Part shown: positions 4,842 to 53,107 of the stretch, piece by piece
How the letters are laid out: each line of letters begins with the position of its first letter
Position numbering within the stretch: position 1 is the first letter of the stretch
Assembly (NCBI GenBank): GCA_003557645.1
Contig: PWNV01000020.1
Location: forward strand, 78,328-142,327
Reading direction: 5' to 3'
Length of the DNA: 64,000 nt
Source: Candidatus Nealsonbacteria bacterium
GTDB taxonomy: Bacteria; Patescibacteriota; Minisyncoccia; Minisyncoccales; PWPS01
The notes under the pieces: model-generated
Told to the model about the DNA's origin: nothing
Seen by the model: only the letters and a program-made list of their open reading frames with translations
Databases searched by the model: none
Made by a program: the position numbers and the translations under genes

Positions 4842-5319
4842 CGTTTTTTTTATCCAACGTATATTTGTTATATCCTTCATCTGAAAACTCAATTTTCTTA
4901 AAGCCATGTTTCCCGAAAAACTTTTCCGCATCCTCTCCTCCTCTTAGATTAAGGGAAATTTCGCTTTTCTCCATACTTTTCATTGCTACCTCTAGAATAT
5001 TACTTGCAAGACCGGAAGAGCGATACTCTTTTTTAACCCACATCATTTCTATAAAATTTGTATCGTCTTCCTTTTCTGTATAAACAATAAATCCTACAAC
5101 ATCCTCGCCCTCTTTTGCTACTAGCAACTTTGATTTCTCAGACTCAATCATCCCTTTCAAATTCTCATAGTTAAAACTAAGAGCTCCTAACTTTATCCCC
5201 ATTTCATCTTCCTCCTCCCTTTCTTCCACTCCTAAGTCTCTGGGAAGATTTTCAAGGTCATCCACGCTTCCCCAAGTTATCTCTGGTAATTTTATATTTT
5301 CAAAATTTCTTTCAAGCAT
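4834..5319 (-). CDS. GNAT family N-acetyltransferase
   Basis: 161 aa. Acetyl-CoA binding-like motif WVKKEYRSSGLASNILE. Confidence 0.75.
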   Translation of the reverse strand: MLERNFENIKLPEITWGSVDDLENLPRDLGVEEREEEDEMGIKLGALSFNYENLKGMIESEKSKLLVAKEGEDVVGFIVYTEKEDDTNFIEMMWVKKEYRSSGLASNILEVAMKSMEKSEISLNLRGGEDAEKFFGKHGFKKIEFSDEGYNKYTLDKKNDE

Positions 5320-6328: not shown

Positions 6329-7048
6329 TTATATCTCACTGTATCCTGGAAAATAATCATGTCTTATCTGCTCTTCTTTGACTCCAAGAGCTATAAGCAT
6401 ATCGCTTGCCGAGTGCACCATCGATTCCGGGCCGGAAACGTAAAAAATACAATCATTGATATTTTTTATATATTTTTTAATCATACCTTCATCAACATAT
6501 CCTGTTTCCCCCTGCCAATCTATGCTTTCATTTTTTACTATATAAATGGTTTCAAGGCCGAAAACTTTTCTTGCCTCATTAAAGATGTCACGAAAAACAA
6601 TTTCTTTTTCCAAGTTTGTTCCGTAAAAAAAAGTAATATCTCTCTTTTCTTTTCTGTCAATTAAACTCTTAACCATACTCCTGAATGGAGTAACTCCTAT
6701 TCCTCCAGCAATAAAAACTAACTTTTCAGTACTTCTCTCGGGAAGAACAAAATCCCCATAAGGACCTTCTGCTGTAATATTGTCTCCTAATTGAATTTTT
6801 TTTAGCTGTGTTTTAAATGTGCTTGCACTTTCAATAATTTTTGTTACAAGCAAGATTTTTTCTTCTGCCGGTGAAGAAGCGATCGTAAAAAATCTCCGAG
6901 ACCCCCTACTATCAGCGTTTTCATGTTTTAACGACCACTCCAAAAACTGTCCTGACCTAAAATTAATCTTTTTTTCACTTTTAAACCAGAATCCATAAAT
7001 AGAGTCCGCGAGTTGTTCCTTTTTTCTTAGAGCCAGTTCAAAACTCAT
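6329..7048 (-). CDS. FAD/NAD(P)-binding oxidoreductase (ferredoxin-NADP reductase-like)
   Basis: RRFFTIASSP (FAD-binding RxYS-like motif) and GGIGVTPFRSM (NAD(P)-binding motif). Confidence 0.75.
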   Translation of the reverse strand: MSFELALRKKEQLADSIYGFWFKSEKKINFRSGQFLEWSLKHENADSRGSRRFFTIASSPAEEKILLVTKIIESASTFKTQLKKIQLGDNITAEGPYGDFVLPERSTEKLVFIAGGIGVTPFRSMVKSLIDRKEKRDITFFYGTNLEKEIVFRDIFNEARKVFGLETIYIVKNESIDWQGETGYVDEGMIKKYIKNINDCIFYVSGPESMVHSASDMLIALGVKEEQIRHDYFPGYSEI

Positions 7049-24866: not shown

Positions 24867-24950
24867 TTAAATTACCTCCTTTAATTTTTCAGGGTACAAA
24901 CTTTGTTCATTATACAATAAGTTTTTAAAAATGCAATATTTTTCTTATCA

Positions 24951-25268
24951 CTAAGAAATTTTTGCACCTGGAGCTATGTCTTTGTCCGGTACAAGGAGGG
25001 AAAGATCTTCTTCATCGACAGCAAGAAGCATTCCTTGACTCTCTAATCCAAATATCTTTCTAGGTTTTAAATTGTAAACAATAACTATATTCTTTCCTTC
25101 AAGCTCTTTGGGAATATAGCTTTCAGCAATTCCAGAAACAATTTGTCTTTTCTCTTCTCCCACATCTACTTCAATCTTCAAAAGTTTATCTGTTCCGTCC
25201 ACTTTTTCTGCTTTTAAGATCTTCGCTGCTCTTAAATCTACTTTTTTAAAATCATCAAAATTTATCAT
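24951..25268 (-). CDS. tRNA-binding domain protein (CsaA/EMAP-like)
   Basis: DFKKVDLRAAKILKAEKVDGTDKLLKIEVDVGEEKRQIVSGIA. Start taken at the internal Met (MINFDDF) to avoid overlap with Pif1; the ORF track extends to 25376. Confidence 0.8.
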   Translation of the reverse strand: MINFDDFKKVDLRAAKILKAEKVDGTDKLLKIEVDVGEEKRQIVSGIAESYIPKELEGKNIVIVYNLKPRKIFGLESQGMLLAVDEEDLSLLVPDKDIAPGAKIS

Positions 25269-25326
25269 TTTAAATATATTATCTTTATTAATTTTCAAAC
25301 TTGGGTTTTTAAAGTAGCGTGAAGCT

Positions 25327-26622
25327 TTACACTCCTCGCCTCTTTTCTTTAAGTGTTCGCCAAAACTCTTTCCCATCTTCTTCTGATGCTTTCTTGAAAG
25401 CCCTATCTATTTTGATAACCTCTTCATTTGCCTGAAGCGCTGTTTTATTTAATCCTATAAGACGTAAGCCTTCAAGTGAACGAATTCTTGAAAGAGCAAC
25501 ATATCCCATTCCCGGCTCAAAAGCCCTACTAAGATCAATCTCTGCAGCATCTAGTGTTGTTCCTTGGCTTTTATGCACCGTAACTGCCCACGCTAAGCGC
25601 AGTGGCAATTGCCTTACCTCTGCCTTCACCTCCCCCTCTTCTTCAATATTCCACTTTTCTTGCTCTACTTTCACGTACCTTCCTTTCTGTGTTCTTACAA
25701 CCGGCATTTCTTCCTGAAATCTTACAACACGTCCAAGAGTTCCATTAACATACCCTTTCTCTGGATTATTTTTAACAAACATCACCACTGCATCTTTTTT
25801 AAGCTCCAGTCTCTTTGGAGTAAGAAGATTTTTCTCTAAAGTGCTCGCTAGTCTTTCCGGCCCACTCTTTTTCATGTTAAAAACTTTTTGTTTGCCGGAA
25901 AGTTTTTCCAGTTCTCTGGCATTTATATTATCCACATTCACATTGTGAGTATAGAGTTTTGTAATCTCTTCTCCTTCTTTTATCTTAGCCATATATCGTC
26001 CCTTCAAAAGATTTATAACATCCTCATTCACTTCATTCTTCCTTATGGACTCTAAAACAAAAAGAAGATCCTTTTCCTTGTGTCGATGCTGCTCTGTAAG
26101 ATAACAAACTCTTAAATCTAATTCTCTCCATGCTCTGCCCTTATAGGCAAAACCTGTTCCCTGGGAGTAAAGATTGTGATCACTTTTTATCGGTGGAAGC
26201 TGAAAAAAATCACCACAAAGAATTACCTGCATTCCTCCAAAAGGTTCTTCACTTTTTAAAAAACTACGTATAATTTTGTCAGCTATATCAAGCTGATCCA
26301 AAGAAAGCATTGATATTTCATCAATAATGAGAACTCGAGTTTTCTCTAATTTCTTAATAAGGTAACTTTTTTTGAGGACACGATTAAGGTCACTAGAAGT
26401 AAGTTGATTTAAGACCCCCATGCCACTAAAGGAGTGAATCGTTACTCCCCCAATATGAGTTGCCGCAATTCCTGTAGAAGCGGTTATTCCAACTGAAACT
26501 CCTTTCTTTTTCAAAAAACTTATATAATCACTTAAAAGATGAGTTTTCCCTGAGCCTGCACACCCAGTAAGAAACACATTGTAACCCGCCTTTAAAATTT
26601 CAAAAGCTTCCTTTTGTTTCAT
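25327..26622 (-). CDS. Pif1/RecD-family SF1B DNA helicase
   Basis: Walker A GCAGSGKTHLL, motif II LIIDEISML, GDFFQLPP, and C-terminal TVHKSQGTTLD. Confidence 0.85.
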   Translation of the reverse strand: MKQKEAFEILKAGYNVFLTGCAGSGKTHLLSDYISFLKKKGVSVGITASTGIAATHIGGVTIHSFSGMGVLNQLTSSDLNRVLKKSYLIKKLEKTRVLIIDEISMLSLDQLDIADKIIRSFLKSEEPFGGMQVILCGDFFQLPPIKSDHNLYSQGTGFAYKGRAWRELDLRVCYLTEQHRHKEKDLLFVLESIRKNEVNEDVINLLKGRYMAKIKEGEEITKLYTHNVNVDNINARELEKLSGKQKVFNMKKSGPERLASTLEKNLLTPKRLELKKDAVVMFVKNNPEKGYVNGTLGRVVRFQEEMPVVRTQKGRYVKVEQEKWNIEEEGEVKAEVRQLPLRLAWAVTVHKSQGTTLDAAEIDLSRAFEPGMGYVALSRIRSLEGLRLIGLNKTALQANEEVIKIDRAFKKASEEDGKEFWRTLKEKRRGV

Positions 26623-26675
26623 CTAATTATTTTCTAAAACTTTGCCTCTCAGTTCTTATATCTTTTTTAAACAAG

Positions 26676-27401
26676 TCAAAAATATTTACTAAACCGCTTC
26701 TTAATTTCAACGAACTCCTGTTTTTTGAAATTAAACCTATGCCCTGGTCTATCATTTAAACTTTTTAAAAGTCTACAAAATTTTTCGTGATCAAGGGTCT
26801 CTATATCAAGATCTTCACACTCTTTTCTTATCCTCTCGTTAGCTTTTTCAATATTTTTAGACTCAGTTACAACTTCCGCTTCAAAATAATATCCCCAATC
26901 AGGAACCTCTACCAAGGAAAAATCGACTTCCTTGTAGCGATAAAGATATGTTTTTGTTGCCTGAAGAACACCGTGATAGTGTCCCAGTATCTTTAAAAAC
27001 TCTATCATCTCATCAATCTTTTCTTTTTCAATTGGGAAAAGAAACTCTTTCCGCGCATCATTCCCGCTCCACCTTCCATGCTTTAAAACCAACTCCCCTT
27101 TTTTATTGGTTATTCTAACCTTTAAATCTACTGGATGTTCGTATACCTCTTTACTTTGATCATCCTCTCGTTGTGAGTATATAACAGAAAACCTATCAAT
27201 TATTCCTAGGAAATCAGCTTCTTTATCAAAAAAAACCTTAAGTCTTTTAAACTCATCTTTTTTTAGTGCTCCCCTGTGCTCAACTTCTATTTTTGTCATA
27301 TTTCTCTTTATCATCATACCAGACCTCGAAGAAAAGATAAATAAAAAAGGAAACCTTTTCAGAGCTCCCTTTTTGTGTTTACCGACTCGTTTAGATGACA
27401 A
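26676..27401 (-). CDS. CYTH-like domain protein
   Basis: EVEHRG...DLKVRIT...LVLKHG...RKEFLFPI...VDFSLVEVPDWGYYFEAEV beta-strand pattern. The true start is probably an internal Met at 27317 or 27299. Confidence 0.55.
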   Translation of the reverse strand: MSSKRVGKHKKGALKRFPFLFIFSSRSGMMIKRNMTKIEVEHRGALKKDEFKRLKVFFDKEADFLGIIDRFSVIYSQREDDQSKEVYEHPVDLKVRITNKKGELVLKHGRWSGNDARKEFLFPIEKEKIDEMIEFLKILGHYHGVLQATKTYLYRYKEVDFSLVEVPDWGYYFEAEVVTESKNIEKANERIRKECEDLDIETLDHEKFCRLLKSLNDRPGHRFNFKKQEFVEIKKRFSKYF

Positions 27402-27452
27402 AACTTACACTTTAAAGTATAACTTTCTTTTCTTTGTGAAACTCATATAAAA

Positions 27453-29102
27453 TTATTCTGCAACCTCTCTTGCCTCTTTGTCTTCTAAAGAAAACTCTAT
27501 AATTTTCTCTTCTGCTGGGAAATAACTTCCCTTCTCAAATCTAATTACTCGCCTTTCTTTATCATAGCTACATTTTTGAGCACACATGTCTTCTTCTTTC
27601 CTATACACTTCTTCAAAATCTGAAACGCTGTAAATCGCTTCATAACACTGCCCGTACATTTCATTGCTAACACAAGCGAAAAAATAGTCCTCTTCTTCTG
27701 TGAAGGCAGAATTATTAAAATGAGCCAAGTCTAAACTTAAAACCTTTTCTTTTTCATTTAAGTTATATATATCTATTCCTCCAAATCCAAAAAAGCTGAA
27801 ATAACTCATTAAATAGTTACCTTTCGGAGAAAACTTCAATGGTCCTAAGAGCATCTTTTTATCACCCCTTTCAAATGAAAATTCTGCAACTCCTTCATCT
27901 AAAACTTTTTCTTCCCCATCTTCTAAAACCACTAAATAGCTATTACCTTGTCTTTCTTTTGTGAAAGCAATCATGTCTTCAAATTGAAAAAACTCTGTAA
28001 GAATTTTTTCTGAAGAAATCGGGATGATCTTTTCTTCTTCAACTTCCATAGTTACGTGGTATAGTTCTTTTTCCCTGTTTTCATCTTGAAAGTAAACTTT
28101 AAAGCGATATCTATTATCTCCTATCTCTTCAAAATCGCTAGGCTCAGCTAAAATTGTTTCTTCGTACCAGCTCTCGTATGTTTCAAAATCAATATCTCCT
28201 TCTTTGTACATACCATAAGCATCTTCTAAATCTCCTTTTACTATCTTATAGTAGTACTTGCGAATAGTTGTTATTCTCGGATCTTCACCTTCTATAACCT
28301 CAAAATCTTTTTGTTCCGATATAGTAGGTGGAAAAACGTCAATACTACCAACAAAAGCAGAAAACTTTGCTTTCTCCTTTTCATAGCTTTCTCCTGCTTC
28401 CATAAAAATATCTTCTGGACCTAATATTTCATCAAAAGATTGTTTTCCTGCATGAAAATAACTGATAACTGCATTATCAAAATAATTGTTTTGCAGTTTC
28501 ACGAAAGCATAGTCTGTTAGATTGTAATTATAATAAGTGTCTCCTCCTTCTCTCTTGACTCTTGTTTGACGAATTGATGTTTTAATATCTTTCCTACACT
28601 CAGAATAAATTTCTTCTAAAACATACCAATCAACATTCGGTCTTTTATCGAACTCAAAGCGATAATCACAGATGTCGTGACTTTCTTTTATCTCAAGAAA
28701 ATTATCAATGGGACCCAAAGACATCAAGCGGAGATTCGAAGGTAGTTTTCCTTTGAATTCATCGTTATATATTTCTATTCTTGGAACTTTTTCTCCAGAA
28801 AAATACAAATCAACCCTGTAATCTAATTCCGACACGTAATCTGTATTCTCCCTACCCTCTTTTCTTAGCTCGTTAATTTTTTCTAAATTGGTAATTGTTG
28901 TTCTGGGAGATGTGATTGGCTCTCCCCACTCAGGTGGATAGTGAAAAGAAATCCCCAAAACATCATGCTCGTAATAAATCCAATCTTTCGTTAATATCCT
29001 CTCTTCTGATTTTTCTTGCAACAAGGAGATAACCGATGCTATTATCCCGATAACAACAAGAATAATCAAAAAAACAATTATTAGTAGTGCTACTTTTTTC
29101 AT
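27453..29102 (-). CDS. hypothetical large secreted/anchored protein
   Basis: 549 aa with an N-terminal TM helix. No family recognised. Confidence 0.4.
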   Translation of the reverse strand: MKKVALLIIVFLIILVVIGIIASVISLLQEKSEERILTKDWIYYEHDVLGISFHYPPEWGEPITSPRTTITNLEKINELRKEGRENTDYVSELDYRVDLYFSGEKVPRIEIYNDEFKGKLPSNLRLMSLGPIDNFLEIKESHDICDYRFEFDKRPNVDWYVLEEIYSECRKDIKTSIRQTRVKREGGDTYYNYNLTDYAFVKLQNNYFDNAVISYFHAGKQSFDEILGPEDIFMEAGESYEKEKAKFSAFVGSIDVFPPTISEQKDFEVIEGEDPRITTIRKYYYKIVKGDLEDAYGMYKEGDIDFETYESWYEETILAEPSDFEEIGDNRYRFKVYFQDENREKELYHVTMEVEEEKIIPISSEKILTEFFQFEDMIAFTKERQGNSYLVVLEDGEEKVLDEGVAEFSFERGDKKMLLGPLKFSPKGNYLMSYFSFFGFGGIDIYNLNEKEKVLSLDLAHFNNSAFTEEEDYFFACVSNEMYGQCYEAIYSVSDFEEVYRKEEDMCAQKCSYDKERRVIRFEKGSYFPAEEKIIEFSLEDKEAREVAE

Positions 29103-29162
29103 AAAATATTTATTTAACTTTTGATATTTTTTGCTTATCCTCTACTGTTGTCATTAAAGATT

Positions 29163-30317
29163 TTAACTAAGCAAATAATAAGAAGCGAGATAGAAAAGAA
29201 TTGCTGCGCCAAAAAGTGTAACCCCAATCATTGCTTTGGAATTTACTAACCATATCCTTTTGGTCAAAACAGCGCTGGTAAAGACCGCTACTTCAATTAA
29301 CATATAGGAGAAGAGATAGAGCAAGATATAAAGAATAGATGCTGTAAGAGAAACTCCTGCCTCAGCTAATAAGCCAGCATAAATTATGGGCAAGCCGATC
29401 GAACAAGGAAGCTCTACTAGCGTTATTATAATAGCAAAGGAAACAACACTTCCGGTCAAGGCAATAGCACTTTTTTTAGGATCACTGAAAGATTCTTGAA
29501 GTTTTTTTGCCACATTGATAGCGAGCCTGCTTTCAGAAGAATCACACGTTGGTCCGTATTTAACAAACCTCCACGCCTCTTTCAAAAAATATAATCCCCC
29601 CAAAAATGCTAATACTCCAATAACAAAACCCAGGCTTTCAGTGTATGCTGATAACACTTCGTAGAGACCTCTCCAAGCAAAAACAATTCCCCCATAGACC
29701 GCCACAGTAATAAAGATAAATAATCCTCCATAAAAAAATATTTTTTTTCTGGAATCAAAGGCAATAACAATAGACAAAATCAAAATAAGGGCCCCGAGAG
29801 AACATATATTAAATCCATCGATTGTACCCAAAGCGATAGTTATAAAAGGCAAAGACCAATCACTAGTATCAACTTTTAATCCAATAAGTGGAACTGTAAA
29901 AATACAGCAATCACTCACAATATCTCTTCCTTCGATTGCAGCAATCAAATCTTTCTCTTCTTCCTCGGAAAACTGAATAAATTGAAGGTGATAATCTTTA
30001 TCGTTGCTATGAATAAAAATAGTTGGCGCCATCATGTCTGGTGACTCTACTCCATGCATCTCCCCTACTTCATCTAAAAGCTCTCTGTCAGATATAGGAT
30101 AGGTAATAATTTCTAGTCCCTCATAATCATCTTTAATCTCTTCAAAAAAATACTTCACTTTCCTACAAACCTCACACCATCTGTCTTCAAAAAAGTAAAT
30201 GGTTACCTCTTTCTCATTAACGCTGTTTTCTGTAATCAAATCTTCGCTGGCAAGCAAAGGACTTGCCGTAAACAAAAAAATAAAAGAGATTAAAAGAAAT
30301 ATTGCTTTTTTTGCCAT
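29163..30317 (-). CDS. thioredoxin-like domain fused to CcdA/DsbD-type thiol-disulfide transporter
   Basis: Signal peptide and a WCEVC redox motif, followed by a polytopic domain with DGFNIC and LPCS motifs as in CcdA. Confidence 0.7.
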   Translation of the reverse strand: MAKKAIFLLISFIFLFTASPLLASEDLITENSVNEKEVTIYFFEDRWCEVCRKVKYFFEEIKDDYEGLEIITYPISDRELLDEVGEMHGVESPDMMAPTIFIHSNDKDYHLQFIQFSEEEEKDLIAAIEGRDIVSDCCIFTVPLIGLKVDTSDWSLPFITIALGTIDGFNICSLGALILILSIVIAFDSRKKIFFYGGLFIFITVAVYGGIVFAWRGLYEVLSAYTESLGFVIGVLAFLGGLYFLKEAWRFVKYGPTCDSSESRLAINVAKKLQESFSDPKKSAIALTGSVVSFAIIITLVELPCSIGLPIIYAGLLAEAGVSLTASILYILLYLFSYMLIEVAVFTSAVLTKRIWLVNSKAMIGVTLFGAAILFYLASYYLLS

Positions 30318-30335
30318 AGAAACATTTAATTAACT

Positions 30336-30713
30336 TTATAATCTACATCCTGTCTCTTCTGATAAGTTTTCCGGGGAACCCCAATCATCAAAAACCTCCC
30401 CCTTTATCTGTACTTCAGGAACAACGTTTGTCTTCATTTCACTCCTACATCTCACTGTCTCTCCTGTAGTGCCACGCCCTGAACAATCTAGATAAATGAA
30501 TTTTATTGTTTCATAATCATCATATTCCCGTTCTAACTTGGTACAAGTCGGACAAGTACTACTACCATAAATAATTACACCAGAGTCTGCTAAACACTCA
30601 ATAAAGGAATGATCACTATTGTTTTTATCTCCCTTTTCCTCAATATTTACAGCATAAACAACTCCAACAATAACTAGAGCCGTCGCCATTAATATTAAAA
30701 TTGCTTTCTTCAT
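30336..30713 (-). CDS. secreted glutaredoxin/thioredoxin-fold protein
   Basis: Signal or anchor helix. YGSSTCPTCTKL is a CPxC motif. Confidence 0.55.
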   Translation of the reverse strand: MKKAILILMATALVIVGVVYAVNIEEKGDKNNSDHSFIECLADSGVIIYGSSTCPTCTKLEREYDDYETIKFIYLDCSGRGTTGETVRCRSEMKTNVVPEVQIKGEVFDDWGSPENLSEETGCRL

Positions 30714-44084: not shown

Positions 44085-44690
44085 TTACATATAACCACAT
44101 ATTGGCTGATCAATTTCTAGTTCTTCTACTTTTCTAGAAATAACCTCTTCAATCGTTTCTGTAACCTTTCTAAATATCTCTAAATGAGGATCTTCTTGAT
44201 AGTAGTAATGACTTAAATATGATATTTTTTTTATTTTCTCTCCTCCAGAATAAATTTCCAACACTCTGCTAGTTGGCGGTATAACGGTAACACAATTTTC
44301 TCCTGCTTCATCACAGTTATCTGTAAATTCATCTTTTATTTTCATTAAATCGTTATCTTTAATAAAAATACATATTTCTTTTTTCTTGCTATCACTAAGA
44401 ATAAACTCATATTCAACTGGTTCTTCTCCGCACATGTCTGGAGAATAAAAGTTTTCTTTTGTATTCAAGGTAGATTCACCAACTCCAAAGCTATAAATAA
44501 AATCAATTTTATTATCACATTCTATAGTATTGCCATTTGAAACATCATAATTATTGTTTTTTTCATAAACATCTTCATCAAAAATTTTTTCTGTTGTTTC
44601 TTGTTGCTTTAAAAAAACAAATAATCCCATTGCCACTGCAAAAATAAAAATTATTAAAATCCCTACTGTTGTTGATATTTGTTTTTTCAT
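44085..44690 (-). CDS. hypothetical membrane-anchored protein
   Basis: 201 aa, N-terminal TM helix. Confidence 0.4.
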   Translation of the reverse strand: MKKQISTTVGILIIFIFAVAMGLFVFLKQQETTEKIFDEDVYEKNNNYDVSNGNTIECDNKIDFIYSFGVGESTLNTKENFYSPDMCGEEPVEYEFILSDSKKKEICIFIKDNDLMKIKDEFTDNCDEAGENCVTVIPPTSRVLEIYSGGEKIKKISYLSHYYYQEDPHLEIFRKVTETIEEVISRKVEELEIDQPICGYM

Positions 44691-44726
44691 ATACTTTATG
44701 TCTATTATTGCTGAATTATATCACAA

Positions 44727-44806
44727 AACAAAAACCCGAGGAATATCTCGAGATTGTTATTAGAAAAAAAATAGAAAGGGCTGCCCGGATGGGACAATTT
44801 CCGAAC
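44727..44806. repeat. direct repeat copy A (degenerate tRNA-Gln 3' end plus downstream flank)
   Basis: Aligns with 45928..46002 at about 85% identity. The block ttgttattagaaaaaaaatagaaag is identical at an offset of exactly 1200 nt. The tRNA-derived part carries a 5-nt insertion. Confidence 0.75.
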
Positions 44807-45026
44807 TTTTAAGTGGTTAAATAAGGTTGAAAATATAGATGATGTGTTAGAAGAATCAAAGGTTTTACTAGAAATATAGTTACCCCACACCCCCGCACAC
44901 TATTGTTCTATTAAAAAGCCAAATTCTCCGACTAAAAGGGACCTGCCCCCTGTTTCCTCTGTCTCACACGTAAAATTTTTTTGCCAAAGTTAGGCGATGG
45001 AAACGGAAAAATTTAAAGATTTAAGA

Positions 45027-45860
45027 TTATAAGTCCCGGAGACAACGAACCGAAAAGCCGAACTCCTGACCGCGGGTATCGCGATAGACGGTAGAGAAAC
45101 CGGAAAGATGGTACCGGTAGTAACTACTCCAGGGACGGGAATCAACTTCGGAGGAAGACCAAAAATTGGCGAACGAACCGAGATAGTAGAAATTGCCGTA
45201 AGTGTCCCGGAAGCCACCTGGGAGAGCAGAAAAGTCGTAGTTATCCGTTCCGGTGTTCATGTCCCACAAGGCAGTGTTTGCTTTTAGTATTGTTCCAGCA
45301 GGTGAGCAGCCCCAATTATTTCTTGTATCACTACAGTTATCAGTTGCAAGATAGTCTTCCAGTGTGTGCCACTCTTCATCTGTTGGCAGATGCCAACCTA
45401 TTGGACAGGAATTGTCTGCTGCTAGATGGTTGTAAAGAACACCGTAGGTTTGGTAGTTACTGGTTGCTTTAGCTGCTTCTACATCTGTGCCATCGTATCC
45501 GTAAACATAGTAATACTTGGTTGCTGTGTCTCCCGTAGCAGGTCCTACTACTTCTGGAAGGTAGGCTAGGTTTTCTGACATCCAACATTGATTACCTATC
45601 TTTGTCGTAGAATAAGTTTGGTTGTCTCTTTCATCTATAAAATCATCTCCACAAGACCACTCTTCGTCAACAACCGGCTCATCTATTTCCGGTTCTTCGG
45701 TTTCTACTGCATCCTCATCAATAACCGGCTCATCCACCTCCGGTTCTTCGTTTTCTACTACATCTTCTACCGGCTCCGGACTTTGGAGTGCCAAAGCAAC
45801 AAGACTTCCTAATACGACAACTCCCAAGAAAATTAAAAATATTTTTAAGTTTTTAGTCAT
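45027..45860 (-). CDS. FISUMP (Fibrobacter succinogenes major paralogous) domain protein
   Basis: TM anchor and an acidic tandem repeat. Then FIDERDNQTY...IGNQCWMSENL...GWHLPTDEEW...FSALPGG...FWSS...GFSVRCL. Local GC is much higher than the surroundings: 35/60 in 45041-45100 versus 19/60 in 44101-44160. Confidence 0.8.
   Translation of the reverse strand: MTKNLKIFLIFLGVVVLGSLVALALQSPEPVEDVVENEEPEVDEPVIDEDAVETEEPEIDEPVVDEEWSCGDDFIDERDNQTYSTTKIGNQCWMSENLAYLPEVVGPATGDTATKYYYVYGYDGTDVEAAKATSNYQTYGVLYNHLAADNSCPIGWHLPTDEEWHTLEDYLATDNCSDTRNNWGCSPAGTILKANTALWDMNTGTDNYDFSALPGGFRDTYGNFYYLGSFANFWSSSEVDSRPWSSYYRYHLSGFSTVYRDTRGQEFGFSVRCLRDL
45668..45769. repeat. 2 x 51-nt tandem repeat inside the FISUMP gene
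   Basis: Units start at 45668 and 45719. They encode EEPEVDEPVIDEDAVET / EEPEIDEPVVDEE. Confidence 0.7.
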
Positions 45861-45927
45861 AATAATTTGTTATTTTATTATATATCACCGCCTTGCTAAT
45901 ACCTTAGCATAAAGAGAATAAATGTTA

Positions 45928-46002
45928 AACAAAAACCCGAGAAGTCCTCGGGGTTGTTATTAGAAAAAAAATAGAAAGAGCTGCCGGGATAGGACTCGAA
46001 CC
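45928..46002. repeat. direct repeat copy B (includes the genuine 3' end of tRNA-Gln and its terminator)
   Basis: Partner of 44727..44806. Confidence 0.75.
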
Positions 46003-46051
46003 TATACTACGAGTGCCAGAAACTCGTGTCCTACCATTAGACGACCCGGCA
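45982..46051 (-). tRNA. tRNA-Gln (anticodon CUG)
   Basis: Manual cloverleaf. Acceptor TGCCGGG/CCCGGCA with the U1-A72 pair typical of tRNA-Gln, anticodon loop TTCTGGC, T-loop TTCGAGT. No encoded CCA. Confidence 0.9.
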
Positions 46052-47660: not shown

Positions 47661-48759
47661 TTATTTCTTAATTCCTGACTCAATAAAAGAGTCAAGACTT
47701 CCATCTAATACTTCTTCAACGTTCGAAGTTTCAACCTTTGTTCGTAAATCTTTTGCTAGTTTATAAGGATGGAGAACATAGTTTCTTATCTGATTTCCCC
47801 AGCTTGCCGATGCTAACTCTCCCCTCTCTTTTTCCATCTTTCTCTTTTTTTCTTCTTCTTGTAGTTGCTCTATCTTGGACCTTAGAATGTTCATTGCTTC
47901 TTTCTTGTTTTCACCTTGCAACTTTCCACTTTGTGAGCTAGCTGTAAGTTTGGTAGGAAGATGAGTGATACGCACCGCTGTTTCTCTTCTGTTTACATGC
48001 TGCCCTCCTGGTCCAGAAGAACGAAAAGTATCGATACGTAGATCTTCCTCTTTGATCTCCACTTCTGAATCTTTTTCCTCTATTTTCGGAATCACACTAA
48101 CTTGCGCAAAAGAGGTGTGTCGGACACTAGCTGAAGAAAAAGGAGACTTGCGAACAAGTCGATGAACTCCACTTTCCTTCTTTAAAAATCCGAAAACATA
48201 AGAACCTTTTATCTCTAGGGAAACATCTTTTATCCCTGTTCTTCCTTCCGGGCCACCAGCCTCTCCAAAAGAAGTAGATATCACTTTTACCTTGTAATTC
48301 TTTCTTTCTGCATAACGCTCGTACATCCGAAGAAGCATTGCGGCAAAATCTTCTGCATCTCTCCCACCTGCTCCAGAAGATATTTCTATTATAGCATCAT
48401 TTCTATCAAATTTACCAGACAGGAAAATACGGAATTCTTCCTTTTTGATTTTTTCTTTAAGCTCTATCACTTCTTTCTGTAATTCCTTCATTATCTCCTC
48501 ATCCTCTTCTGTTTCTCTATGAATATCTTTTATATCCTCTACTTTTTTCTTTAGCTCTGTCATCTTCTCTATATCGTCCTCGAGCAAAGAAAGTTCTTTT
48601 TGTTTTTTAACCGCACCTTCAGGCTTATTCCAGAAATCAGGATGGGAAACTTCCTCTCTAAGCTTTTCTACTTTTTTTGTTTTACCTTTTACATCAAAGA
48701 CACTCCTCCATGTGGAGGATTTTATCTTCAATTTCTTTAATGTCTTTTTCTATTTCCAT
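47661..48759 (-). CDS. prfB: peptide chain release factor 2, with programmed +1 frameshift
   Basis: Frame 0 runs from ATG 48759 to CTT TGA at 48699-48694, preceded by the SD-like GGAGGAG. A +1 shift continues as DVKGKTKKVEKL... into the 47661..48731 ORF. SPF and GGQ motifs are present. Confidence 0.9.
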
Positions 48760-52758: not shown

Positions 52759-52775
52759 ATATTAATATAAAAAAA

Positions 52776-53107
52776 GCTCAAGTAGGACGTAAGCTGAATT
52801 CTGTTATTCCTACAAAAAGTAGAAACGATAATCATTTATCTTGGCTTCGAATTACTTCGAAGCTCCAGCGGGCTACCAAAATTTGCCCTTGCACTCGGAT
52901 AGGGATTTAGCCGTTTCACTCCTAATGTCTCCATTAGGACTATTCCCGAAGGAATCGTCTTTCCTTACGAAAAAACGCGTCTCTGCTCGCACCCCTCGCT
53001 TTACAGCGTGCGGGAATTACCCGCTATCTTTTTACTTAAAAAGTGAGTGTTCAGACTTTCCTCCCTTCTTCATTAAAAAGAAGAGCGATTACCTCACCTA
53101 CTTGAGC
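52776..53107 (-). ncRNA. rnpB: RNase P RNA (bacterial type A-like)
   Basis: On the minus strand: P1 GCUCAAGUAGG pairs with CCUACUUGAGC. Conserved regions are CR-I GGGAGGAAAGUCUGAAC, GUGCAAGGGCAAA, CR-IV AGAUAAAUGAUUAUC and CR-V ACAGAAUUCAGCUUAC. P4 complementarity is AAGUCUGAA/UUCAGCUU. Confidence 0.85.

Follow-up and report, generated by a model that had tools for sequence, protein, structure and literature searches.

Organization of the tRNA-Gln locus

We analysed a 64-kb stretch of DNA, hereafter the window, from a Nealsonbacteria-like Patescibacteria genome that was a singleton in the protein collection; the contig that holds it is 176 kb long. In this window, the gene for tRNA-Gln(CTG) stands at the end of a housekeeping neighbourhood (in order, MurJ, LepA, tRNA-Gly, tRNA-Thr, PrfB, FtsE, FtsX, and tRNA-Gln) and is followed by a small islet bracketed by direct repeats. 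The islet starts one base past the tRNA 3' end, leaves the tRNA intact, carries one gene, for a protein with a FISUMP domain, and ends in a 126-nt module that we also found at the equivalent position of an islet in another lineage (loci L005 and L006, described below). Its parts and borders, in the direction of tRNA transcription, are as follows.

45980-46051 (-): intact tRNA-Gln(CTG), detected by ARAGORN and by Rfam RF00005 (60.4 bits); its 3' end is the insertion point.
45927-45978 (-): proximal copy of the tRNA trailer, 52 nt, with a 25-nt AT-rich spacer, a terminator hairpin (45936-45952), and a T tract.
45861-45926 (-): leader of the FISUMP gene, 66 nt, AT-rich (24% GC), with promoter-like hexamers.
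45027-45860 (-): FISUMP gene, 277 amino acids (aa), with an N-terminal hydrophobic segment, an acidic linker, and then the FISUMP domain.
44905-45026 (no strand): non-coding spacer, 122 nt, between the FISUMP stop and the conserved module, not common to the L005 islet.
44779-44904 (-): conserved end module, 126 nt, identical to positions 7010-7135 of L005/L006 at 110 of 126 positions with no gaps (E=4e-40).
44775-44879 (+): open frame on the opposite strand of the module, encoding KGLPGWDNFRTFKWLNKVENIDDVLEESKVLLEI up to a stop; its 30-residue tail defines a small family.
44726-44778 (-): distal copy of the tRNA trailer, 53 nt, with a terminator hairpin (44735-44752).

The direct repeat was found without gaps by the repeat finder between 44731-44795 and 45931-45995 (82% identical) at a start-to-start spacing of exactly 1200. 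With one gap allowed, 44726-44795 aligned to 45927-45995 with 87.1% identity over 70 nt (E=7e-18), which bore out an earlier note on this DNA, made from its letters, that the tRNA-Gln 3' end, the terminator, and some flank recur at about 85%. A Smith-Waterman comparison of the tRNA 3' end and flank with the downstream DNA gave a score of 93, against 22.6 +/- 1.9 for shuffled sequences. The block of 25 nt that the note had reported as identical at an offset of 1200 was recovered as the 25-mer CTTTCTATTTTTTTTCTAATAACAA, which occurred exactly twice in the 64 kb (44754-44778 and 45954-45978) with 0 occurrences expected from 100 shuffles. The repeats do contain the tRNA 3' end, as in tRNA-targeting integrative elements, but the note's estimate of about 21 nt of repeated tRNA was too high; the tRNA share amounts to only ~17 nt (14/17 identical), and the other 52-53 nt are trailer and terminator hairpin. 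When the alignment was extended over a 5-nt indel into the T-loop, identity dropped to 78% over 90 columns. The note had recommended a search of the genome for further copies; over the 64 kb of the window, the repeat did not prove to be a dispersed family. Another repeat in the window, the 32-nt repeat D3, was attributed to chance.

The hairpin of the proximal trailer copy matched in the terminator scan and folded at -12.4 kcal/mol, and its similarity to the distal copy ended within the T tract. The distal copy runs on into the host-type motif TTTTGTTTTGTGATAT (end near 44715) and then into the gene at 44085-44690 (-); this distal flank motif is common to the related loci L002, L003, L026, and L030. 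After the terminator, the distal copy reads TTTTTGTTTTGTGATAT, which is host-type, and the proximal copy TTTTTGTTTAACAT, without the motif TTTTGTTTTGTG(G/A)TA that was found after the terminator in relatives. Because the distal copy and not the proximal one carries the host-type sequence after the terminator, the distal copy is probably the original trailer and terminator of tRNA-Gln; it is the proximal copy that now terminates the tRNA. The differences between the copies all fall in the hairpin (6 of 18 columns, against 0 of 34 elsewhere, that is, 25 + 9 identical columns; Fisher p=9e-4), a distribution that fits two terminator alleles around a crossover better than the uniform decay of a duplication.

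An end module shared with an islet of another lineage

Loci related to that of the window were collected by three routes. One genome in GTDB, a Candidatus Nealsonbacteria whose FtsX was 76% identical to that of the window, gave L001; a metagenome scan with the 23-mer at the tRNA 3' end gave L002 and L003; and the contexts of FtsX homologues gave L004-L012 and L026-L032. A metagenome scan with an FtsX alignment gave no match. The synteny of FtsX and tRNA-Gln was kept in all of the related loci.

In L005/L006, tRNA-Gln is followed by a 61-nt repeat, ~1.15 kb with two small ORFs (open reading frames) unrelated to the cargo of the window, the 126-nt module, and the repeat again. The two copies of the repeat are 60/61 identical; the first copy starts with the final five bases of tRNA-Gln, and the second lies 1149 nt further downstream. 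The same islet was present, without differences, in two independent assemblies. The L005 repeat forms a GC-rich hairpin (-23.8 kcal/mol, z=-5.5) and is, like its cargo, unrelated to that of the window. The similarity between the window and L005 in this region begins only at 44904. The duplicated trailers are of 52/53 nt in the window, of 56 nt after CAGCC in L005, and of 53 nt in L003, a locus without the module. The two hosts are distant from one another, with FtsX proteins 63% identical in amino acid sequence and tRNA-Gln genes identical at 54 of 76 positions.

At the DNA level the comparison of the module was made between two copies, those of the window and of L005/L006, which are 87% identical without gaps. 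The last 17 nt of the module, 44779-44795 (GTCCCATCCGGGCAGCC), mimic the 3' end of tRNA-Gln. In both hosts the module ends in ...CAGCC, which lines up in register with the end of the true tRNA, and the host's own trailer comes next. The earlier note had taken the distal copy of the tRNA end for a dead tRNA fragment and the classic footprint of integration; this fragment, together with its five extra bases, lies within the module and is the tip of that conserved unit. Because the conserved module in the islet of another lineage includes the tRNA-like piece, the piece belongs to the incoming element and is not a decayed host tRNA end. The host DNA around the islets of the window and L005/L006 was only 66-68% identical; over 5.7 kb of syntenic DNA with essential genes the figure was 67-68%, and no 126-column window of it exceeded 82.5%. 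The module surpasses every one of these syntenic windows, and therefore either lateral spread or a very strong constraint is needed to explain it. Vertical inheritance of the module was rejected, since its 87% identity contrasts with 71% for the tRNA-Gln genes and with trailers that cannot be aligned. The module was absent from the tRNA-Gln loci of L001, L002, L003, L008, L026, and L029.

A promoter-like pair TTGATT-16-TATATT (44859-44832, minus strand) was kept in both copies of the module, with a consensus match of only 9/12. The module had no match in Rfam, and the Rfam search returned only tRNAs and RNase P, plus noise below the threshold. The consensus fold of the two copies by alifold was weak (-12.45 kcal/mol, one compensatory pair) and contained no palindrome resembling the attC sites of integrons.

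Both copies of the module are open for ~32 codons on the opposite strand and share the same stop; the frame of the window (44775-44879) has no ATG, GTG, or TTG start. The 34-residue translation was searched by phmmer, exhaustively, against 1.84 billion representatives. Five more small metagenomic ORFs of 38-76 aa were found, on contigs of 0.9-2.4 kb (JGI, ENA, and NCBI), that were 53-75% identical to the tail, with the same stop, invariant hydrophobic positions, and unrelated N-termini. With these, the family has at least seven members beside different flanks, in a sample biased by the protein library, which reveals only copies with an open frame. Among the same 1.84 billion representatives there was no long protein with the 30-residue tail, only the ORFs of 38-76 aa, and the 55-aa version in L005 had no homologue in a protein word search. 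The 30-residue peptide had no match in Pfam, PHROG, NCBIfam, or PDB. The mismatches between the two DNA copies are spread as 5/3/5 over the codon positions and therefore give no sign of coding constraint.

Occupants of the site in related genomes

No two lineages had the same DNA after tRNA-Gln. A gene with a NADAR domain was found there in L001, genes of the GIY-YIG type in L002 and L003, and two small ORFs in L005/L006. In L026/L027 a terminator of native appearance came first and was followed by a restriction-modification pair of type III. L008 had a response regulator at this place, and L029 had unknown ORFs.

In L030/L031 and L026 an unoccupied layout was seen, in which the tRNA, a ~30-nt trailer, a terminator hairpin, TTTTGTTTTGTGGTA, and the next gene follow one another. 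Deletion of 1200 nt from the window recreates this layout of tRNA, trailer, terminator, TTTTGTTTTGTG, and next gene. As to the empty site that the earlier note had proposed to look for, only this unoccupied layout was seen, in relatives that share no more than 58-76% FtsX identity with the window, none of them a genome of the same species.

Several of these loci had features of their own. In L003 (6322-6754), a bare GIY-YIG ORF (104 aa, 6378-6692) lies inside a perfect 53-nt direct repeat (53/53) made up of the last 14 nt of tRNA-Gln and 39 nt of trailer; the trailer begins with 9 nt whose reverse complement (CGAAGGATA) comes directly after the GIY-YIG stop codon. As L003 is without the 126-nt module, a different insertion mechanism may have acted there at the same hot spot. 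In L002 (2400-3320), two GIY-YIG genes flank tRNA-Gln. A 14-nt direct repeat, AATTCATTGCCGGG (3306-3293 and 2993-2980), lies on either side of the gene between the FtsX stop and the tRNA. The second gene has no repeat and begins immediately at the tRNA 3' end, behind a GC-rich leader of 120 nt. Further downstream, L002 contains a fragment of an rve-type transposase and an ORF of 340 aa that looked radical-SAM-like by eye. The contig end of L001, the closest relative (5100-5243, minus strand), ~200 nt past the NADAR cassette, resembled by eye the C-terminus of an IS30-type transposase (...RKRLGYLTPYEVY...). A second tRNA fragment seen by eye after the NADAR gene (~4985-5017) was not above chance (p ~0.1) and was dropped.

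Nine of the 19 contigs with FtsX and tRNA-Gln (L004, L007, L009, L011, L012, L028, L030, L031, and L032) end inside the tRNA or at most ~160 nt after it. Such ends could mean strain-variable insertions or equally an assembly artefact caused by a conserved tRNA and duplicated trailers, and we did not rely on them. L026/L027 and L028 have an identical FtsX protein and tRNA-Gln, and their sequences diverge right after the tRNA CCA. The insertion point may thus be polymorphic within one species, as far as the 32 nt of L028 show.

The cargo gene

The FISUMP gene matched PF09603 (E=1e-37; 130.6 bits, cut-off 33.9) over profile positions 2-187 of 187, and TIGR02145 (E=1.3e-37; 130.2 bits, cut-off 41.65), so that the domain is matched at full length and above the curated cut-offs, and the earlier note was right to place a single FISUMP gene in the bracketed segment. 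Composition statistics were taken over 70 ORFs of the window. The FISUMP gene had the highest GC content (45.0%, z=3.0) and the highest GC content at third codon positions (GC3; 0.399, z=2.4) of all 70, in keeping with the note's view that it stands far above the background. The note's description of the adjoining non-coding DNA as having G/C-rich tracts did not hold in general, the DNA between the FISUMP gene and the distal repeat being 35.5% GC overall. The 122-nt spacer had no match in Rfam. On the minus strand of the leader, TTAGCA-16-TAAAAT and GTGATA-18-TATTAT were found as consensus matches only. The cargo is predicted to be the gene of a secreted protein. Its acidic linker, EEPE(V/I)DEPV(I/V)DE, is encoded by a 51-nt tandem repeat in two copies (45661-45762, 84% identical).

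The search for homologues returned 1513 proteins at E<=1e-3, the best of which, other than the protein itself, were 41-62% identical, with a maximum of 62% over the domain. Few of them were named; these came from Paceibacterota/Parcubacteria, Bacteroidota, and one Gammaproteobacteria bin, and many were fused to prepilin N-termini. Thus the comparison that the earlier note had suggested for the taxonomic affinity of the gene yielded homologues and no nameable donor, another Patescibacteria lineage being as likely as any. Neither the module nor a tRNA was found in the contexts of two FISUMP homologues (L033 and L034). In L033, a metagenomic contig (1101-2229), a FISUMP homologue (46% identity, full length) directly follows a GIY-YIG gene, a pairing that echoes the GIY-YIG and FISUMP cargo at tRNA-Gln. 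A 201-aa neighbouring gene considered as a FISUMP paralogue was rejected on comparison.

Recombinases and known mobile elements

The FISUMP gene is the only ORF of the islet, which contains no integrase or other mobility gene. A domain scan of 46 ORFs in the window, 44 of them at least 170 aa long, detected no recombinase, integrase, transposase, or Cas1-like domain, and no tyrosine-recombinase box II motif was found in the window. The statement of the earlier note that no integrase remains agrees with these results. The repeat finder detected no terminal inverted repeats at the islet ends, where there was only one AT-rich 17-mer pair. In viral contigs, a 17-mer of the module gave 13 matches, all of them bare seeds without extension, and there were 0 matches for two longer patterns of the module and the tRNA 3' end, 0 for the peptide alignment, and 0 for FISUMP. 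A blastn search of phage and plasmid records with the islet gave no match. With the viral-contig, phage-record, and plasmid-record scans all negative, no partner integrative and conjugative element (ICE) or integrative and mobilizable element (IME) was found.

Other features of the window

At 48694-48759 (-), prfB has a canonical programmed +1 frameshift: the ATG at 48759-48757 is followed by GGAGGAGTGT CTT TGA T, with CTT TGA at 48699-48694. Because of this frameshift, the list of ORFs shows only the downstream prfB frame. A bacterial RNase P RNA of class A (137.5 bits) lies downstream of murJ at 52775-53104 (-). The region 24900-30400 contains a PIF1-like helicase gene (25327-26622) and then three large ORFs (241, 549, and 384 aa) without a Pfam match, and may be another accessory or defence-like patch.

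Discussion

The deviant composition of the islet, the variable occupants of the site in relatives, and the layout restored by deletion uphold the proposal of the earlier note that a small acquired islet lies at tRNA-Gln. As to its nature, we favour, at about even chances, the reading that the 1200 nt between the repeats are a non-autonomous mobile cassette at the 3' end of tRNA-Gln(CTG), for which a recombinase is supplied in trans. This reading draws on the position of the islet, its repeats, the conservation of the module in lineages whose cargo differs, the deviant composition, and the fact that no recombinase was detected. The cassette would consist of a copy of the tRNA-Gln trailer and terminator, a self-contained expression unit of leader and FISUMP gene, the 122-nt spacer, and the 126-nt end module. 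A recombinase encoded elsewhere would act site-specifically: it would pair the tip of the module, which resembles the tRNA, with the 3' end of the tRNA itself, and a circular form of the cassette would be spliced in behind the tRNA and ahead of the tRNA's own trailer. The tRNA would be kept intact and terminated afterwards by the trailer copy borne on the cassette, and the original terminator of the host would now close the FISUMP transcript. The proximal trailer copy probably arrived with the cassette, and a related donor's tRNA-Gln locus would be its probable source, which fits the way in which the two copies differ, like two terminator alleles around a crossover.

Several points weigh against this proposal. 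Neither a recombinase nor a circular junction nor an empty site in the same species was observed. The putative role of the module as a recombination site is read from its position only, in two DNA copies, and the conservation of the module could reflect an encoded peptide or RNA. A simple crossover between attachment (att) sites does not explain the duplication of each host's own trailer, the trailers being unrelated to one another; the duplications need either donors near the present hosts or another duplicating mechanism. The deviation in GC content of the cargo is moderate, and GC at second codon positions is raised by amino acid composition.

Of the alternatives, we regard as unlikely the decay of a larger integrative element or prophage whose phage attachment site (attP) lay inside a gene, with the module as the orphaned 3' tail of ~30 codons and the remainder, including the integrase, deleted. 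The frame is open from the tRNA-like core for ~32 codons into the element, with the stop and the hydrophobic positions kept in seven sequences, and mycobacteriophage BPs, whose attP lies within the repressor gene, loses 33 residues from the C-terminus of the repressor on integration (PMC4557955); moreover, tRNA hot spots commonly contain degenerate elements and partial tRNAs scattered among them (tycheposon preprint, bioRxiv 10.1101/2020.12.28.424599). However, neither the window nor L005 has, at the proximal junction, an N-terminal partner that reads toward the tRNA, the phmmer search gave no long protein with the tail, the 55-aa L005 version has no homologue, and the spread of mismatches over the codon positions shows no coding constraint. 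That two islets have the same compact layout and the same left module boundary despite different cargo also argues against decay, so that the suggestion of the earlier note that the islet is a remnant of a larger element retains only a small share of the probability. A transposition-like insertion, with cuts at the tRNA 3' end and ~52-56 bp downstream and a gap repair that duplicates the host trailer in the style of CRISPR repeats or casposons but longer, seems to us distinctly unlikely. Such a target duplication would explain why trailers unrelated between hosts are each doubled at similar lengths (52/53, 56, and 53 nt) and why the duplication is perfect or nearly so in L003 (53/53) and L005 (60/61). 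It would leave the tRNA-like tip of the module without a role, however, and it meets with the lack of terminal inverted repeats and of a transposase or Cas1-like gene among the ORFs scanned, and with the clustering of differences in the hairpin of the window copies (p=9e-4); the cases are three only, and L003 is without the module, so its repeat may have another cause. No characterised enzyme is known to make a fixed duplication of ~55 bp; only the IS1634 group of insertion sequences is known to give long ones, and these are variable.

It is very unlikely that no dedicated element was involved and that a circular or linear DNA fragment of a related strain, with its tRNA-Gln trailer, entered by homologous (Campbell-type) recombination in the 25-nt spacer, or arose by local duplication, the module being part of the donor locus. 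An identical core of 25 nt between diverged flanks does look like the surroundings of a crossover, and the perfect 53-nt repeat of L003 flanks a bare GIY-YIG ORF with no module. Yet 25 nt is short for RecA-type recombination, and homologous recombination cannot carry the module from one lineage to another when their flanks share 66% identity and their trailers are unrelated; the origin of the first duplication is left unexplained. Least plausible of all, to the point of being highly improbable, is an islet that is not mobile, in which the module is a conserved small gene normally downstream of tRNA-Gln, either for a micro-protein of ~32-42 aa or for a small RNA transcribed from TTGATT-16-TATATT, and the FISUMP gene is an ordinary lineage-specific gene. 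The frame and stop conserved in seven sequences, the conserved promoter-like site, and the frequency of FISUMP proteins in Paceibacterota/Parcubacteria would suit such a gene, but the module is missing from the six related tRNA-Gln loci named above, and the two hosts resemble each other far more in the module than in their tRNAs and essential genes. In addition, a start codon is lacking in the window copy, the two copies fold into only a weak consensus structure, and the Rfam, Pfam, PHROG, NCBIfam, and PDB searches gave no match.

Since its end module recurs, with different cargo, at the same site of another lineage, the islet is probably a member of a small and undescribed family of mobile cassettes. 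More specifically, and with a likelihood that we consider somewhat low, the 126-nt module could mark a family of integrase-less mini-cassettes in Patescibacteria, of one or two genes each, with a tRNA-mimicking end that encodes or overlaps a 30-residue peptide, which move between lineages, insert exactly at tRNA 3' ends, and duplicate the ~52-56 bp trailer. Such a family is supported by cargo that is interchangeable, by the conservation of a cis-acting end, and by insertion at one precise point, the 3' end of a tRNA. It would imply either a new mode of integration (by a long staggered cut or by a ruler-type integrase) or a new trans-acting recombinase; if the integration step itself makes the trailer duplication, its enzymology would be new. 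Few mobile elements have been described in Patescibacteria (the candidate phyla radiation, with very small genomes), and gene exchange among them is poorly understood. With a family of ~1-kb cassettes, lineages would have a simple means of passing surface and accessory genes to one another. The 126-nt module and its 30-residue translation would provide a sequence handle for finding further such insertions, as well as the missing recombinase, in metagenomes.

Comparison with known systems

Integron cassettes have one or two promoter-proximal genes, a conserved 3' cis site, interchangeable cargo, and no internal recombinase, and in these respects the islet resembles them. It differs in that neither IntI, among the window ORFs scanned, nor an imperfect palindrome of the attC type is present, in that a tRNA 3' end serves as the target, and in that the islet has a promoter-like leader of its own. 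The islet also differs from transposons and miniature inverted-repeat transposable elements, which are recognised by terminal inverted repeats, and from tRNA-targeting elements that carry the integrase gene inside the element. In SSV-type split integrases, the gene is split by integration, which invites comparison with the islet frame that crosses the att core. Likewise, the frame that crosses the tRNA-like core and leaves ~30 C-terminal codons at the distal junction recalls phage BPs, with its 33 residues (PMC4557955). The islet departs from both BPs and SSV, as there are no two ORF halves at opposite junctions in the window or in L005, no N-terminal part at the other junction, no full-length protein with the tail, and no prophage.

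The tycheposons of Prochlorococcus (bioRxiv 10.1101/2020.12.28.424599) are similar to the islet in their use of a tRNA hot spot in a streamlined genome, partial tRNA repeats as att sites, variable cargo, and degenerate remnants; unlike the islet, they carry a tyrosine recombinase and replication genes, and the islet shows no homology to them and is an order of magnitude smaller. The cis-mobilizable elements (CIMEs) are decayed derivatives of ICEs and IMEs that have kept both attachment sites, attL and attR, and have lost the genes for integration and transfer (Guedon et al. 2017, PMC5704250). The islet is like a CIME in its site at a tRNA 3' end, in having kept direct repeats with the tRNA end and no mobility gene or recombinase, and in needing an integrase in trans. 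It differs from a CIME in its size (1.2 kb, one gene), in a repeat that is mostly trailer and terminator and not tRNA, and in its Patescibacteria host lineage, in which no partner ICE or IME is known. It further differs in the 126-nt module at its end, which is common to unrelated cargo and suggests a designed non-autonomous unit over random decay. The element is related to tRNA-linked islets and cis-mobilizable elements, and where the earlier note had read a classic footprint it has a conserved end module of its own.

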